Shown here: positions 21,686-36,039 of the stretch, one piece after another
How positions within the stretch are numbered: the first letter of the stretch is position 1
Layout: each line of letters begins with the position of its first letter
IMG/VR virus record: IMGVR_UViG_3300031565_000079
Span: 1-45,508 of that record
Strand: one strand, 5' to 3'
DNA from: a virus
Length of the DNA stretch: 45,508 bases
Made by a program: the position numbers and the translations under genes
The notes under the pieces: generated by a model
Told to the model about the DNA's origin: nothing
The model's database searches: none
Seen by the model: the letters and a program-made list of their open reading frames with translations, nothing else

Positions 21686-21849
21686 GGTTCTAAAGCCTCC
21701 ACTCTTTTATGTAATTCAGATATATCAGAATATAAGGCAATTACTAATTCAGAAAATACCTTATTGTATTCTTCTAATATCCTTTTCATTTCAGGGTCTT
21801 CTATATTTATATAAGGTAAAATAAGGTTCTTTGGTGTTAAAATCCTCAT
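21682..21849 (-). CDS. Small hypothetical protein (55 aa)
   Basis: Hand translation gives MRILTPKNLILPYINIEDPEMKRILEEYNKVFSELVIALYSDISELHKRVEALEP. It has a TAATG overlap upstream and an ATGA overlap downstream. Confidence 0.5.
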   Translation of the reverse strand: MRILTPKNLILPYINIEDPEMKRILEEYNKVFSELVIALYSDISELHKRVEALEP

Positions 21850-23651
21850 TATCGAACTCCTATTGGGACAAATTCATTTATTAATCCTATAAATTCAAAG
21901 TCGTTCCAAAACACAAACTTAATAAGAAAAGACTTTGCCAAGAAATCCACATCTCCACTACTATCCTGATTTTCACTTGGTAAGTGTTTGACGATAATAT
22001 CCTCATCGCCAGTTAAAGATATCTCCCCTGCATATTGCCAACTTGCCTCATTATCTCGTTTGACATATATTTTGCATGTTCCAGTATTTTTATTATCAAA
22101 ATAAGAATATAAATCCTCAAGTCTTTTCTTAATATGTAATCCTTGTTTTTCTGCCAAATCAGTCGAAAGCACAAAATAAGATTCGTAAGTTTCTCCGTCA
22201 TCAGTTAAAGATTTATTAAGTTGATAAGTATATCCAGAATTACAAGAACATATATTTATCTTTGTACCAGTAGGAACAACTCCCGATGCAGCGGTTTGGA
22301 ATTTAACCCATGCACCATAAGCAGTTCCGATTGAATTTACTGCGTAAGTACGATACCAGTATTCGGTGTTACCTTGTAAACTGGTGATATCCTTCTCATA
22401 CACTCCAATTCCATAAGTTCCATCAGTGTGAACATCGTTTAGGTCATCTTTGGTTAGGGCGTATTTGAATCCTCTTGTGGTAACATCAACTCCACCCGTA
22501 TCGGTGATGTCTCCGTTTCCCGTTACTTGAGCCTGTAAGATTGCGTCTGCGTCTAACGTTACTACGGTTGCCAGTTCTGCTGGGGTAGTATCATCATCCT
22601 CTGAATAACCATCAGAATATCCCGAATTTGGTGCGCCAGTTTTAAAACTCCAAGCCCGATAATAGTAATGGGTTATTCTTGCGAGTTCATCATCACTAAA
22701 ACTTTCACCTGTACCAAAATAGGCTTCATCTCCGTCAGTCACACCAGTAGGTGCAGAGTCTATCTTCCTCCGAATCATGGTCTTTTCTGCACCAGTTCCT
22801 TTAGTCCAGGTAAGGTTAATCTGTGTGCTACTGATTACCGTACAAGCCAGAGCAGTAGGGTCGTTTGGTTTGGTGGTGAAATTTAATACATTGCCGTAAC
22901 CATAACCTTCGGAATTGTAAGCATAAGCTCTTATGTAATATTTAGTGCCAGGTAATAATCCTGTTAAGTTTCTACTGAAAGCACCCGTTCCGAAAGTGCC
23001 TGTTTCTTCTGATTTATCATTTGCAACCGTAGGATTTCCTGTGGTATTCCAACACACTCCTCGTTTAGTAGGAGTGGCATCGCCTAAAGCAGTTATATTA
23101 CCGTTTCCTGTTGCAGTGGTTTCTTCAATTAGTGTGGTTGCCACAGAAGAAACAAAGGGAACTGATTCGTAATTAATGGTTGCATATACTTGGGTGCAAC
23201 GTGTAGCATAGGCGTTAAAGTCAGTATCCATCTCAACGCCGATTTGTAGATTGTCAATATCGTCCCAAGTCCAAGCCAATGAGGTGAATGGATTTTGTGT
23301 CCAGGTATAAGTACGGGTAACCCAGCTACTTAATGGGAAAGATTCTTTATTACTATATTGAGTACTACCTATCCTGATTAATTCCCAGCAACTAACATCA
23401 TCTGTATTTTCATATACTCTAATGCTAACTTTAACAGAGTTAATAGTTCCTGCTTCTTTTAGAGGGTCTCTATTTCTTATATTATATAAATCACGATGAC
23501 TGCCATTCGGGTAGGTGTTAAAAACACGGGTATCAAAACTGTCCGCAACTTCTTCATCAACCTTATCCCAGTTATATCCTGAAGATGGGGATTGAAATAA
23601 TTGTGTTATATAGCCAGGTGCATTTGGTCTTAAAATTAATTCTGTTGACAT
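21849..23651 (-). CDS. Tail/virion surface protein with repeated FN3-like domains
   Basis: Start trimmed to the ATG at 23651 (MSTELILRPN, TAATG overlap). The repeats are GxxYYIRAYAYNSEGYGYG, THYYYRAWSF and TEYWYRTYAVNSIGTAYG. Confidence 0.7.
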   Translation of the reverse strand: MSTELILRPNAPGYITQLFQSPSSGYNWDKVDEEVADSFDTRVFNTYPNGSHRDLYNIRNRDPLKEAGTINSVKVSIRVYENTDDVSCWELIRIGSTQYSNKESFPLSSWVTRTYTWTQNPFTSLAWTWDDIDNLQIGVEMDTDFNAYATRCTQVYATINYESVPFVSSVATTLIEETTATGNGNITALGDATPTKRGVCWNTTGNPTVANDKSEETGTFGTGAFSRNLTGLLPGTKYYIRAYAYNSEGYGYGNVLNFTTKPNDPTALACTVISSTQINLTWTKGTGAEKTMIRRKIDSAPTGVTDGDEAYFGTGESFSDDELARITHYYYRAWSFKTGAPNSGYSDGYSEDDDTTPAELATVVTLDADAILQAQVTGNGDITDTGGVDVTTRGFKYALTKDDLNDVHTDGTYGIGVYEKDITSLQGNTEYWYRTYAVNSIGTAYGAWVKFQTAASGVVPTGTKINICSCNSGYTYQLNKSLTDDGETYESYFVLSTDLAEKQGLHIKKRLEDLYSYFDNKNTGTCKIYVKRDNEASWQYAGEISLTGDEDIIVKHLPSENQDSSGDVDFLAKSFLIKFVFWNDFEFIGLINEFVPIGVR

Positions 23652-24955
23652 TATGGTTCTAAATAACCTCCAAACGAAGGAATAGCCATATCGACTTGTC
23701 CCCACTTACCTTCTTTAAAAGTTAAAAGTAAGTTATTCAGTTCGTTATCAATCGGGACAGCCCAACAAACTTCTTCAGTTTCATCTATAAATTCACTTCT
23801 GATTTTTTCAACCGAAGTTTGATAGATTAAATCTACGATGTCAGTTTGTATCGGTTGAGAGATAGTGCCTGCTGAAATTTCCTTAAAAGTACCATCAGAG
23901 GCGTACCAGTATAATCTCCCCTTACTATCATTCACGATTGACTTACTGCATCTGCAACCAATTTTCATTGAGATAAAAACCCCATTAAAAATAAGATCAG
24001 TATCAGCAGTCAACCAGTATTTATAATAACTACTTGCTTTAAAAACAATTAAAAGTCCTTGATATTTTCCAAATCCTGTTAAAGAGTCAGATTTACCCAC
24101 TTCGGTACTGCCTGAATTTACAGCTATCCATTCATTTTCATTTCCGATAGCATTCCATCTAAATCTTTGAGGATAATAATTTCCATTTTCATACGTATAT
24201 CCCAAAATAAGAAAGTTCTCATAATCAGTCATGTATTTTGCTTTAGTTAGGAAATAACCTGTCTCGTATTCGATGCCTTGAAATTCAACGACAGTTCCAC
24301 CACTTGTGTAAGTGGTATATCCCGTTGAGTCTATTCCGTTTAAAGAAAATACGTCAACAGAATCAACAGTAACTACGAATTGTAGATTATTAATCTCTAC
24401 CATTCCACCACAATCTTTAATAAAGACTCTATCCCCAGTGGTCAAATTGTGAGCAACTGCTGTTACATGACAAGGGTTTTCTCTAGTAGCTGCTGTAATG
24501 GTAGTGGGAGTAGTGTTTTGTAAAGGCATAAAGTATCCAGTTGTATCCCAAACTAAAACGGGGTCTACGTTGTTAGTAGCCATAACTTTGTCGTTGTAAC
24601 TTTTCGTTTCCCAATTTTCACAATCAGCAGAACAAGTGAATTTTATATCCCATGCTTTGTTATCCCAGTTCCAACAGTAGATATGGGCTTTGGTGAAACC
24701 AAGTAAGTACTGTGAACCAGTAGACCTCTTAACGAAAGTATGATAATGAAGGATAGGGTTTTCATCGGGAGTTCTTACCTTTACCGCTTCGGCAGTTACT
24801 AAATTCTTTTCCCTCATCTTTCTCCTGACTATCTTGCCATCTTTAAGTAGAATATTCTGGCTATCAGGCATAAGAGTTTTCAGCAAAAGTATATTAGGGA
24901 CATTTTTAGCTAACTCGTATTGTGGACTAAAAATAGCAAAAGTATTTTTATCCAT
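23651..24955 (-). CDS. Virion structural protein (tail/nozzle candidate)
   Basis: Track ORF of 434 aa that is beta-rich and lies within the structural chain. I recognised no specific motif. Confidence 0.65.
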   Translation of the reverse strand: MDKNTFAIFSPQYELAKNVPNILLLKTLMPDSQNILLKDGKIVRRKMREKNLVTAEAVKVRTPDENPILHYHTFVKRSTGSQYLLGFTKAHIYCWNWDNKAWDIKFTCSADCENWETKSYNDKVMATNNVDPVLVWDTTGYFMPLQNTTPTTITAATRENPCHVTAVAHNLTTGDRVFIKDCGGMVEINNLQFVVTVDSVDVFSLNGIDSTGYTTYTSGGTVVEFQGIEYETGYFLTKAKYMTDYENFLILGYTYENGNYYPQRFRWNAIGNENEWIAVNSGSTEVGKSDSLTGFGKYQGLLIVFKASSYYKYWLTADTDLIFNGVFISMKIGCRCSKSIVNDSKGRLYWYASDGTFKEISAGTISQPIQTDIVDLIYQTSVEKIRSEFIDETEEVCWAVPIDNELNNLLLTFKEGKWGQVDMAIPSFGGYLEP

Positions 24956-32547: not shown

Positions 32548-32754
32548 TTATTTATATATTACTATTTCTATTTTCTTAAAGCCAGTTAGACCACCAAGAC
32601 AAAAGTCCATTGTTATATTCCCAGTAAAGTCAGGACTTTCCTCGAATATATGCCTTAATTGATTATTTATTTTTTCTAAAGTTTTGTCAATTTTAGTCAA
32701 CAATACGCCTCCTATATTATACAGAGAATAAATTTGGTCGTCAAGGTAACTCAT
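32548..32754 (-). CDS. Hypothetical protein (68 aa), translationally coupled to terL
   Basis: Track ORF whose ATG overlaps the terL stop codon (ATGA). Confidence 0.55.
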   Translation of the reverse strand: MSYLDDQIYSLYNIGGVLLTKIDKTLEKINNQLRHIFEESPDFTGNITMDFCLGGLTGFKKIEIVIYK

Positions 32755-34164
32755 GCAGTCATATAACTACGCCTTTTTGTTTTCCGTCCAAAAGTATGAA
32801 TAGTTACGTGTTCCTCGGTTGCGAATTGCAAGCTCCAAAGCCCCATGATATACGCATCTCCATGGTCTGGGGATTTCCCTAAATTCTTTGGTAATTTCAT
32901 TTCGGCTTTAGGTTGGATGATTAATTGGTCTCCGTTAAATTTATATTTATAAGCATTGAGTTCCCTCTCAAGGTCTTCATCCACAAAAGTTAATTCTATT
33001 TCACTATTTCCAAACATTTCCCCAGCAAGCCATGTAGCTTCTGCTCGCCTGTTGTAGAAGCATTCGGGAACACCCGATTTCTGTCTTTCAGCACCATTAA
33101 ACTCTATGATATTACATTTCCAATTCCACTTTTGAGAATGCTGTCGCAGGATAGAAGCCACACCAGCACCACAACCTATAACATCAACCACAATCACAGA
33201 AGGTAAAAATGAAAAAGCCATTGTTTCAGCTTCTTCGGCAATATGAACTTCGTCTTGATGACCGAAAATCTTGGCTTTCATTATATCGGTATTCTTCATA
33301 GCATAGATGACAGTCTCATCATCACCGAAGCGTGCAGGGTCAATAGTTATGACTTTTCTTACAGGTTTGTGAAACTTCATCTCGTAAGCTCTTTTAATCC
33401 AAGAAAGTTGAATAACCAAGTCAGCCCCAGCCATAACATCCCAACATCCGTCTCTATAAGCCTTTAGTAAGACCGGTCTGTTTCTTAAAACATATTCCAT
33501 TCTTGGTACATAATCTTCTGGTAAGTAATTATTATCCGATGGTAAAGCAGGTAAATAGACTCTCCCATTTTTATTCTTGTTATTAACAAACGCTTCTTTT
33601 AAATAGCAATCTCTCGGATTAGCGGAATAAACATATTTATAAGGGAGGGCTTCTCCGTTGATAGTCAATCTACAAGCAAGTTTAAGTTCAACTAATTTAT
33701 CTTCTTCTATCTCTTCCGCTTGATCAAGACAAAAGAATGCTATTTCAAAAGAATTAAATTTCTGTACTACTTTCTTATTATCGAGTCCCCCGTAGTGGAT
33801 TTTGAGGCGTTTATTTACAATGATTTCCTTATTTTTGGCATTTATAGTATAAACACTTTCAGGAATGAATCTTTTCCATGATTCTAAAGTGGTATCATCG
33901 AAGTCAACGCCCTGAAGCCTCCCAAGAAACCCGATAGGTATTGGGTTTCTTAAGGGTGGAATATTGAATCTTTTTATAATCATATCGCAGTAAAGCCAAG
34001 CATATCTGCATAAGAGTACGCTTTTGTCAACCTCCCCCCTTGGCTCCACCGTATAAAAGTTCTTTGGTATATGTCTGATTCAATAACCAAAGAGCAAGTA
34101 ATTGTTTATCAGTCCATTCGATTCGATACTTCTGTTGTACAAAATCAAAGCTATTTGGATTCAT
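32751..34164 (-). CDS. terL: Terminase large subunit, encoded in two overlapping frames (N-terminal 45 codons at 34027-34164, remainder at 32751-34049); needs a +1 shift or contains a 1-nt indel
   Basis: Frame A, translated by hand, gives [45 protein letters not shown] followed by TGA, which is the start of a Walker A motif. Frame B (track ORF) continues ...[11 protein letters not shown] and contains Walker [11 protein letters not shown] and a C-terminal nuclease-like region. The frame A ATG overlaps the HNH stop codon (ATGA). Confidence 0.8.
34027..34041 (-). other. Candidate +1 recoding site AAG GGG GGA GGU UGA C (or a G6 homopolymer indel)
   Basis: The C6 run at 34034-34039 and the TGA at 34027-34029 were read base by base. 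Frame B is +1 relative to frame A. Confidence 0.6.
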
Positions 34165-34670
34165 AAGAGGGGATAATCACCACCTTTCCTTATTTTTTCT
34201 ATAAATTCTCTTGATATCTTTCCAGCAATATCCTTATGTTCTTTCAACCATAAGTCAATTAAATATTTCTCCAAACAACAATGTTCAGATTGTGTTATAA
34301 GTAACAAATTTTCTATCCTATTATCGGTTTTAATACCATTGATATGGTGAACAACCTCTTTAGAATCTAATTCTCTACCTAAATACTTTTCCATCACTGC
34401 ACGATGTTCCAGTATGGTTTTGTTAGCAGATTTCCAAAGCAACATATACCCATCAATAGTCTTTCTTCTTCCGCCTTTCCAACTGGGATTTTGATTTCCA
34501 GGAAATCTCCATATTAAGTTTATACTACTGTCTCTACGAGGAATATTGAATTTTATCATCCATCTCCATATAGTTTTAAGATGCACTCCACACAATTTAG
34601 CAATTTGGACTAAACCCAATTTTTCGTTCCAATATTTGTTATACAACCATTCCCTGTTTTGATAATTCAT
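34161..34670 (-). CDS. HNH homing-type endonuclease with an N-terminal HTH, immediately upstream of terL
   Basis: Track ORF of 169 aa containing WKGGRRK...[40 protein letters not shown]. It is a paralog of ORF 3912-4280. Confidence 0.8.
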
Positions 34671-34946
34671 TTAACCATCAATCAGTTCTGGAAAATATTC
34701 CCGTTTAATATCTTTTAAACTTACCATTTCCCATTCTATTGCACCATTTATTTCTTCTAATTCTCCCCACATTTCTTCATACTTTTTGCCACGTTCTAAA
34801 AATTCGATAACTTTGCGGTAGAAATCTACTTCGGAATCCATTAGTCTAAAAAGTTGTCTATCTTTTATTAATCTTTTAAATACTTTAATTATTTCTTCTA
34901 TATCCATTTTTTCAACATATTCTTTTGCTTCTTTTGTATCCATCAT
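34671..34946 (-). CDS. Hypothetical protein, member D of the GEKY...W...YFP paralog family
   Basis: Track ORF of 91 aa containing ERGKKYEEMWGELEE...IKREYFPE. Confidence 0.65.
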   Translation of the reverse strand: MMDTKEAKEYVEKMDIEEIIKVFKRLIKDRQLFRLMDSEVDFYRKVIEFLERGKKYEEMWGELEEINGAIEWEMVSLKDIKREYFPELIDG

Positions 34947-35182
34947 TTAACCACCTTTATTAATTTCTTTTCAGGAACTTCAGGAACTATTGATAATCTC
35001 AACTTTATATCGTATGTCTTTGCTTCTAAGTTCAGTGTTTTGTAATCATTATGACTTAACATTCCTAACATGAGTCCTTTTACATATTTGCGGAAAGTAA
35101 CATTCCTGTCTTGATAGGTTTCTTCGGTTACGTCTAATTTGCTGTTACCTTCAAAGACTTTCCCCGTGCCTACTCCGTTCAT
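34943..35182 (-). CDS. Hypothetical protein (79 aa)
   Basis: Track ORF with RBS aaaaggaggtaaatATG and an ATGA overlap downstream. Confidence 0.6.
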   Translation of the reverse strand: MNGVGTGKVFEGNSKLDVTEETYQDRNVTFRKYVKGLMLGMLSHNDYKTLNLEAKTYDIKLRLSIVPEVPEKKLIKVVK

Positions 35183-35964: not shown

Positions 35965-36039
35965 TGGCGAGTCGAGTAGGATTTGAACCCACACTTTTAG
36001 TTCTGGAGACTAATGTGCTACCATTGACACTATCGACTC
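35965..36039 (-). tRNA. trnW: tRNA-Trp (anticodon CCA), with the 3' CCA encoded
   Basis: Hand-folded cloverleaf: acceptor GAGTCGA/TCGACTC, D arm GTGT-CAATGGTA-GCAC, anticodon arm TTAGT-CTCCAGA-ACTAA, T arm GTGGG-TTCAAAT-CCTAC, discriminator G, then CCA. Confidence 0.9.

Follow-up and report, generated by a model that had tools for sequence, protein, structure and literature searches.

Natural ribosomal bypassing is known from few systems: gene 60 of phage T4 and its homologues, the mitochondria of Magnusiomyces, and probably the terminase gene of the Streptomyces phage Hau3. The present analysis concerns a gene for the large terminase subunit (terL) that may be decoded in a similar way. It lies on the minus strand of the IMG/VR virus record IMGVR_UViG_3300031565_000079, of which the whole stretch of 45,508 nucleotides (nt) is called the window below, and it is broken inside the Walker A motif (P-loop) by four extra bases, TGAC, immediately downstream of a gene for an HNH endonuclease. 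Judging from sequence comparison, TGAC would be a homing-endonuclease immunity scar over which ribosomes make a 4-nt stop-hop, and the locus would resemble the T4 mobA/gene 60 cassette in miniature. We give this reading a probability of about 0.6, because only the exact removal of TGAC restores the motif, similar inserts recur in relatives, the interrupted genes are constrained, and a nuclease gene is linked to them.

In T4, as summarized by Manning and Atkins (bioRxiv 10.1101/2022.08.31.505936, citing Bonocora et al., 2011), a 50-nt bypass in gene 60 forms a cassette with the gene of the HNH endonuclease MobA. The gap starts with a stop codon after a Gly codon and protects against MobA; in systems of this type the gap often persists after loss of the nuclease, and other nuclease families can substitute for it (bioRxiv 10.1101/2022.08.31.505936). 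The terL locus is similar in that a putative untranslated gap interrupts, within a highly conserved motif, the gene of an essential phage enzyme, is led by a stop codon behind a Gly take-off codon and is adjoined by an HNH homing-endonuclease gene. Among its relatives, too, there are cases in which the nuclease is lost and the gap kept, or in which a different nuclease family is in place, and the distribution is sporadic and recent-looking. In contrast to T4, the gap is 4 nt long (1–10 nt in the family), the sequences are not homologous, neither a take-off stem-loop nor a dedicated nascent-peptide signal was detected, the landing match in the window is imperfect, and the target is terL rather than a topoisomerase gene. 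Moreover, terL is not physically split by the nuclease open reading frame (ORF), and both bypass and protection are here proposed from sequence.

Four other systems offer partial parallels. The terminase genes of the Streptomyces phages Hau3/StrepC.1 contain UUA-led gaps of 7–10 nt (Smith et al., 2013; Antonov et al., 2023, PMC10732093), and the bypass junction peptide of the Hau3 terminase was identified by mass spectrometry in Escherichia coli (PMC10732093). There, as in the present family, short non-coding blocks stand at highly conserved junctions of the gene for the large terminase subunit, and frameshifting would add residues to an invariant motif. However, the pause codon in Hau3 is the rare sense codon UUA, a sensor for the host's bldA tRNA, whereas all pause codons here are stops; reports on Hau3 mention no link to an endonuclease, its TerL family and hosts are different ones, and only 3 of 100 genes are affected as against roughly a third to a half of the lineages here. 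Engineered stop-hops in E. coli, in which a stop lies between matched codons and efficiency is low (Weiss et al., 1987, as summarized in Atkins et al., 2016, PMC5009743), share the proposed movement: the peptidyl-tRNA leaves the codon before the stop and re-pairs a few nt downstream at a similar codon, and landing is possible in any frame including frame 0. According to the same 2016 review, no natural in-frame stop-hop was known (PMC5009743); the related loci L012, L084 and L173 would be natural in-frame candidates. Inteins in the P-loop of phage TerL identify this motif as a homing hot spot (Kelley et al., 2016, PMC5050341). They, too, are homing-endonuclease-associated elements within or beside the Walker A codons of terL, but protein splicing removes them and their nuclease is part of the intein, unlike the 4-nt insert and free-standing nuclease found here. 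Finally, the +1 frameshift site of prfB, the gene for release factor 2 (RF2), also combines an in-frame UGA-C with a Shine-Dalgarno (SD)-like G-rich element just upstream and a forward shift, and one relative, L181, fits it closely. The window differs in needing a movement of +4, with +1 yielding a non-canonical P-loop; it has no CUU-type slippery codon, its SD spacing is 0 nt instead of 3 nt, and the autoregulatory logic of RF2 is absent.

Within the window, terL is single-copy, as no second terL was found among the 20 large ORFs. Its first segment (34030..34164, minus strand) comprises codons 1–45, starts MNPNS from an ATG at 34164 that overlaps the HNH stop codon as ATGA, is 98% identical to the 45-amino-acid (aa) ORF product P0122, and matches the N-termini of the intact products P0002–P0009. 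The second segment (32751..34025, minus strand) runs over 424 codons from Lys46 to the stop, in the +1 frame relative to the first; it contains the rest of Walker A (KS), the Walker B motif (FFCLDQAEE) and the nuclease domain, and is 73–93% identical to full-length relatives, with a dN/dS (ratio of non-synonymous to synonymous substitution) of 0.11 against insert-bearing ones. Between the two lies the insert TGAC (34026..34029, minus strand), which consists of the stop TGA (34029..34027) and a C (34026) and is the proposed untranslated gap. Across the break the transcript runs gcc aag ggg gga ggt tga c aaa agc gta. The G-rich run GGGGGGAGGT (34030..34039; codons GGG GGA GGT), with six G at 34039..34034, contains a perfect SD-like GGAGGT whose end coincides with the proposed take-off codon GGT (Gly45, 34032..34030), and the last three bases of the gap provide the proposed landing triplet GAC (34028..34026). 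A Pfam search with the joined protein gave a weak match to Terminase_3, with HNH_3 upstream and P22_portal downstream.

The first-pass annotation, a reading of this DNA made without database searches, had described the 45-codon ORF, the overlap of its ATG with the HNH stop and the TGA at 34027–34029, together with a remainder in the +1 frame that lacks a plausible start and a P-loop broken in such a way that neither piece can work alone. All of this was borne out, and the break is real. In the +1 frame the sole start codon is GTG at 34049, without an SD sequence; separate initiation of the downstream piece was rejected on this ground and because its product would have no P-loop.

What the same annotation took for an excess of one base is an excess of four. 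A search of 5.8 billion proteins yielded about a dozen relatives at 73–93% identity and hundreds more distant ones, and Walker A is GGAKGGGKS in every intact relative (about 90), so that the surplus in the window must be TGAC (34029..34026). Aligned DNA reads ggagggggt-aaaagc in the intact locus L001 and ggaggt-TGAC-aaaagc in the window. Deleting TGAC in silico produces an unbroken ORF of 469 codons with the canonical GGAKGGGKS, whereas a +1 slip gives GGAKGGGDKS and a shortened G-run gives GEVDKS, neither of which is a Walker A motif. The identical AAGGGGGGAGGT-TGAC-AAAAG was found in five further assemblies from other samples and at least two other projects: L168, which is the closest relative, and L169–L172, four assemblies from one lineage with a TerL just 78% identical to the window's. 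In all five the G-rich run is unchanged although flanking codons differ. Near-identical DNA was not found in cultured phages, whose best TerL matches are at most 32% identical, so that the window lacks an annotated relative, and a scan of GTDB genomes returned only relatives at 50% identity or less, mostly in Planctomycetota metagenome-assembled genomes (MAGs).

TGAC belongs to a family of stop-led micro-inserts. When 230 related loci were compared with reading frames taken into account, and the N-terminal peptide of 45 aa was used for a profile search, 13 independent insert types emerged at four positions, all inside the two most conserved motifs of TerL. After the third Gly codon (GGT), where the window, L168 and L169–L172 have TGAC, the inserts are TAGC in L186, TGAGT in L005/L006 and the 10-nt TGAATAAGGT in L017, so that an in-frame stop recurs in relatives at exactly the position that the first-pass annotation had singled out. 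After the Ala codon of GGA there are TAGTT (L007), TAGCT (L174–L180, seven samples), TAGCA (L074, only 37% identical), TGACT (L173), TGAACT (L084) and TAATTT (L012); after the Lys codon of GGAK there is TA (L184). The second motif (GRLQGVDF) carries a single T in L181, giving AGGGGG-UU-UGA-C, and TAGGGC in L173, where it is a second insert within one gene. Insert lengths are thus 1, 2, 4, 5, 6 and 10 nt; those of 6 nt are in frame, and the 10-nt insert has stops in two frames.

In 13 of the 13 types a stop in the incoming frame stands directly behind a conserved codon, and for each type the canonical protein is regained on removal (checked over full-length ORFs where the locus is complete, otherwise at the motif). 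An immediate stop was also present in all seven inserts found independently of short ORFs, with a chance below about 8% each. ORF products of 31–47 aa that end in ...GGAKGGG or ...YGGA number in the dozens in the 5.8-billion-protein database, and several of them recur in 3–7 samples; they form more than 18 clusters, against about 38 full-length clusters in the close clade. Identical inserts recur across 4–7 samples, insert-bearing and intact terL genes are interleaved among near-identical sequences, and roughly a third to a half of the lineages in this clade are affected.

Two of these loci deserve separate mention. In L173 (Ga0307380_10003314, 2615–2790), GCC[TGACT]AAA in Walker A and GAT[TAGGGC]TTC in the second motif stand in one terL. 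In L181 (Ga0466255_098811, 1800–1830), the sequence CAG GGG GUU UGA C, with its 1-nt insert, closely imitates the prfB +1 site, and in this case slipping by +1 does regain the canonical protein at GRLQGVDF.

The interrupted genes are under constraint. By the NG86 method, ratios of non-synonymous to synonymous substitution (dN/dS) between insert-bearing genomes were 0.047 for L169/L170 (dS 0.43), which both have TGAC and share an HNH insertion history, 0.086 for L005/L017 (dS 1.1), 0.08–0.11 among L007, L012 and L174, and 0.11 for the window and L169, compared with 0.03–0.08 for intact pairs. For L005/L017 the 45-codon piece had zero non-synonymous changes at a proportion of synonymous differences (pS) of 0.41. 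Both pieces of insert-bearing terL are therefore under purifying selection. In addition, removal of the insert leaves ORFs of at least 464 codons in all full-length loci, and an ORF of at least 420 codons stays open downstream of the insert in every lineage. An essential single-copy terL under constraint must be expressed, and some form of recoding must therefore cancel the effect of the insert.

As for the form of this recoding, lengths from 1 to 10 nt, with some inserts in frame and one bearing stops in two frames, can be explained together only by a skip that does not depend on length; a shift of +1 or +2 would put an extra residue into an invariant loop and fails for the in-frame and the 10-nt inserts. 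Codon usage around the inserts is consistent with such a skip. Take-off codons end in U: where the insert follows the third Gly codon, all four lineages tested have GGT, which 25 of 90 intact loci have at this place (L186, found later, also has GGT), and where it follows the Ala codon, five of six lineages have GCT, compared with 27 of 90. Three landing triplets are identical to, or synonymous with, the take-off codon (GGT..GGT in L017, GCT..GCT in L174–L180, GCT..GCA in L074); overall, take-off and landing triplets agree at 24 of 33 positions (P = 5e-5 versus random tails), and the third position of the landing triplet is compatible in all 13 insert types. In the window, UGA-C lies directly 3' of GGU (34032..34026), a weak-context in-frame stop in the A site. 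UGA-C is the weakest termination context in E. coli, and an SD-like element very close to the P site favours forward movement, as in RF2 frameshifting.

From these comparisons, a peptidyl-tRNA hop over TGAC is proposed. The ribosome would reach GGU (Gly45) in the P site with the slowly decoded UGA-C in the A site and the perfect SD-like GGAGGU abutting the P site. The peptidyl-tRNA-Gly would then unpair, the mRNA would advance by 4 nt, and the tRNA-Gly would re-pair with GAC at positions 1 and 3, so that decoding would restart at AAA-AGC and yield TerL with the canonical GGAKGGGKS. Ribosomes that terminate would release a 45-aa peptide. The efficiency of the hop may be low, which may be tolerable for TerL.

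The second part of the proposal concerns the neighbouring nuclease. The HNH gene (34161..34670, minus strand) encodes a protein of 169 aa with an N-terminal helix-turn-helix-like region, a putative free-standing homing endonuclease that matches HNH_3 in Pfam (E = 1.4e-13) and the PHROG family phrog_7545 "HNH endonuclease" (E = 1e-27); it had no sequence match among solved structures. Orthologues are 95% identical in L168, where there are differences at synonymous sites, and 81% identical in L012, and another is present in L170; their dN/dS of 0.10–0.25 indicates purifying selection. The orthologue in L084 additionally has NUMOD3. In the intact loci L001 and L010 the HNH gene is absent, and in L001 the stop codon of the left-hand neighbour overlaps the start of terL, which marks the empty site. 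This neighbour, a conserved gene of 79 aa in the window (34943..35182, minus strand; ends ...KKLIKVVK*), is separated from terL by the inserted HNH gene in the window and L168. Of the near-twins L169 and L170, the latter has the HNH gene, whereas the former retains only an 80-nt 3' remnant yet keeps TGAC. In L173 and L184 the same slot holds an unrelated nuclease-like ORF (47% identity between the two) with the motif WLAGFWEGEG, a weak match to LAGLIDADG_1 and a match to phrog_5046. Altogether, 8 of 11 insert lineages but only 2 of 76 intact loci have a nuclease gene, or what is left of one, next to terL (Fisher p = 1.2e-7); the 114 flanking ORFs of these 76 distinct loci include two HNH_3 proteins and zero other homing-type nucleases.

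Because of this association, TGAC may be best regarded as an immunity scar, its origin and the target of the nuclease being deduced from gene content and layout, and the suggestion of the first-pass annotation that it is a regulatory device for timing TerL synthesis is unneeded. The adjacent HNH gene would encode a free-standing homing endonuclease that recognises the conserved P-loop-coding DNA (the predicted cut would fall in or near TAYGGNGGNGCNAARGGNGGNGGNAAR) in the insert-free terL of competing phages, and TGAC would break the recognition site in the nuclease's own genome, which would thus stay uncut. A role of the HNH protein as a packaging cofactor of the HK97 gp74 type was also considered and is unlikely: the gene is present in a minority of relatives, decays in L169 and is replaced by an unrelated nuclease in L173 and L184.

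The locus L012 (Ga0307427_1002309) may preserve a trace of how such a cassette arrives. It contains a 45-codon 5' remnant of terL from a different allele (634–819; product P0137, 3 contigs), joined in frame to the final 14 codons of the ...VVK gene and ending inside the P-loop codons (AAG GGC); the order is ...VVK tail with terL remnant, HNH gene, and complete terL with its insert. This layout is what would be left by a break in the P-loop that was repaired from an HNH-bearing donor, and it can be read as a recombination fossil of cassette arrival.

Several alternative explanations start from the possibility that the break is no coding signal at all. A 1-nt error in the G6/C6 homopolymer, which the first-pass annotation had offered as its mundane option, or some other local misassembly might be suspected, given that the G6 run lies 5 nt upstream of the insert and that the relative L187 has a homopolymer-type loss of 1 nt in a G7 run. 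However, correcting the run gives GEVDKS and not GGGKS, the excess bases fall outside the run, and the portal genes of 48 related loci are free of stops and frame breaks; as the same G6 plus TGAC was assembled six times independently, homopolymer error is excluded, and the probability of an artefact is negligible. Inactivation of terL deserves more attention, either as a pseudogene in a decaying phage or in a cheater packaged by the TerL of co-infecting relatives, with the inserts as undecoded repair scars. TerL acts in trans, intact close relatives and insert-bearing ones turn up in collections of the same Joint Genome Institute sample series (sample 3300031539, for instance, yielded the intact L004 and the insert-bearing L173), and damaging lesions do occur in the family (a 20-codon deletion in L088, TAG for the Walker A Lys in L182/L183). 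Against this stand the dN/dS of 0.05–0.11 in both pieces between genomes with common ancestry of insert and HNH gene, the long ORFs kept open past the insert in every lineage and the recurrence of one insert in 4–7 samples. Nor would repair scars need a stop codon at the head of every insert or landing triplets that mimic the take-off codons, and inactivation is accordingly judged improbable.

The remaining alternatives accept recoding but differ in how it works. The first-pass annotation had proposed a prfB-like programmed +1 shift, in which the tRNA-Gly would move from GGU to GUU and GAC would be read as Asp, giving TerL with GGAKGGG-D-KS. Its general idea is supported, as stop-stimulated recoding is the best explanation of the locus; the prfB-like step does not, as the movement needed is +4. 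The mechanism is well established, the window does combine the UGA-C context with an SD-like GGAGGU immediately upstream, and L181 has a true prfB-like AGGGGG-UU-UGA-C in which the 1-nt insert is corrected exactly by +1. Yet the product in the window would break the [AG]xxxxGK[ST] motif, invariant as GGGKS in about 90 intact relatives, and the window is not a prfB-type site because GGGDKS is not the conserved functional protein. Re-pairing of GGU with GUU (position 1 plus a wobble pair only) is no better than with GAC, the GGAGGU overlaps the P-site codon (spacing 0) instead of standing 3 nt upstream as in prfB, and the sister inserts of 5, 6 and 10 nt are unsolvable by +1, the 6-nt ones being in frame and the 10-nt one carrying a +1-frame stop. 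A +1 shift in the window is therefore held to be unlikely, to about the same degree as inactivation. Less probable still, and by a clear step, is removal at another level, by RNA excision or editing, by transcriptional realignment, or with the help of a decoding factor specific to phage or host. That removal restores the protein exactly does not reveal the level at which it happens, and the window encodes its own tRNA-Trp(CCA). However, no process is known that excises 1–10 nt from bacterial or phage mRNA, slippage of RNA polymerase requires homopolymers and cannot delete TGAC, a tRNA-Trp reading UGA would leave the frame unrestored, and the universal leading stop together with the take-off/landing match are signatures of a ribosomal event. 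Two further candidates were rejected: an alternative genetic code or stop suppression, as the inserts use TGA, TAG and TAA, most of them shift the frame and ORFs are long under table 11, and the phage tRNA as decoding factor, as the sole tRNA is a normal tRNA-Trp(CCA) that cannot restore the frame.

The proposed stop-hop over an immunity scar also has evidence to contend with. In the window, GGU and GAC agree poorly: positions 1 and 3 match, but the central position is an A-C mismatch. Folding of six loci showed no conserved RNA structure around the site (z-scores from -2.5 to +1.8), although a 4-nt hop may do without a stimulatory structure, and no direct experimental precedent for a +4 shift was found in the literature, the stop-hops covered in PMC5009743 all having a stop between matched codons. 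Two intact loci (L015, L016) have HNH genes nearby, and three insert lineages (L005/L006, L174–L180, L181) are without a nuclease gene in the available DNA. Homing could carry an insert into genes that had already diverged, which weakens some of the dN/dS comparisons; the short-ORF search favours breaks that end in an immediate stop; and broken alleles that are mundane or unexplained exist (L187, L207, L182/L183). The first-pass annotation had further held that uninterrupted terL genes in relatives would count against recoding. Many relatives do have such a gene, but recoding survives this finding because a sporadic distribution is expected for a mobile element.

Beyond the window, the inserts may represent a natural class of micro-bypasses, that is, stop-led TerL gaps of 1–10 nt that arose as recurrent scars against at least two homing-endonuclease families, are hopped without dedicated RNA machinery and include the first natural in-frame stop-hops; we regard the chances of this broader proposal as evenly balanced. 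In the literature, no earlier description of Walker A micro-inserts led by a stop, or of a connection between these and nucleases, was found. If the proposal is correct, ribosomal bypassing would not be a T4 curiosity but a cheap and general way of coping with homing-endonuclease conflict, and gene callers would systematically mis-annotate such essential genes as broken. It would be the second link of bypassing to this conflict and would support the origin of gaps as target-site protection. Moreover, dozens of independent gaps with graded lengths (1, 2, 4, 5, 6 and 10 nt), graded take-off/landing matches and an unambiguous product would offer a natural series for the minimal signals of nucleotide skipping at a stop. 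Split terL calls at Walker A in metagenomic phages are thus not to be dismissed as errors or pseudogenes.

Other broken alleles of the family look different. In L182 (590–600) and L183 (538–548), a distant relative from two samples, the Walker A Lys codon is swapped in frame for TAG (GGCGGCGGT TAG TCC). As nothing is inserted, hopping cannot provide the Lys, and this could be a nonsense mutant or involve a suppressor. In L207 (2025–2045, an Omnitrophota MAG), two extra A in an A-run create A_AAA_AAG, a dnaX-type -1 heptamer, and in L187 (1620–1640) the G lost from the G7 run falls in the same motif; both breaks lack an immediate stop and may be errors or slippage sites. The terL of L088 (2676–2690) has its 20-codon deletion together with a C-terminal frame change, and this is a plain deletion and a genuine defect.

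Other mobile or conflict-related elements were noted at related loci. The distant relative L218 (300–1375, a Ca. Oleincola secundus MAG) has an insert of about 1 kb between the Walker A K and S (...GGGK/MQPL...VTHN/SFLF), which is where P-loop inteins classically sit, and its C-terminal junction, HN+Ser, is intein-like. In L007 (4880–5293) an Endonuclease VII gene stands between terL and the portal gene, and in L170 (699–965) an Acb2/Tad1-like anti-defence gene lies upstream.

In the window itself, a 91-aa ORF without a family match (34671–34946, minus strand) lies between the ...VVK gene and the HNH gene and is bracketed by a 10-nt direct repeat, GGTTAAATGA (near 34943–34952 and 34668–34677). 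It is missing from L168, where the ...VVK gene directly precedes the HNH gene, and it resembles a separate small gene insertion. The tRNA-Trp gene (anticodon CCA; 35965–36039, minus strand), the sole tRNA or Rfam match in the window, is located about 1.8 kb upstream of terL. Farther away, two large structural ORFs (21849–23705 and 23651–24955, minus strand) overlap by 55 nt; one of 434 aa with virion and tail matches is followed by one of 618 aa with a GTG start.

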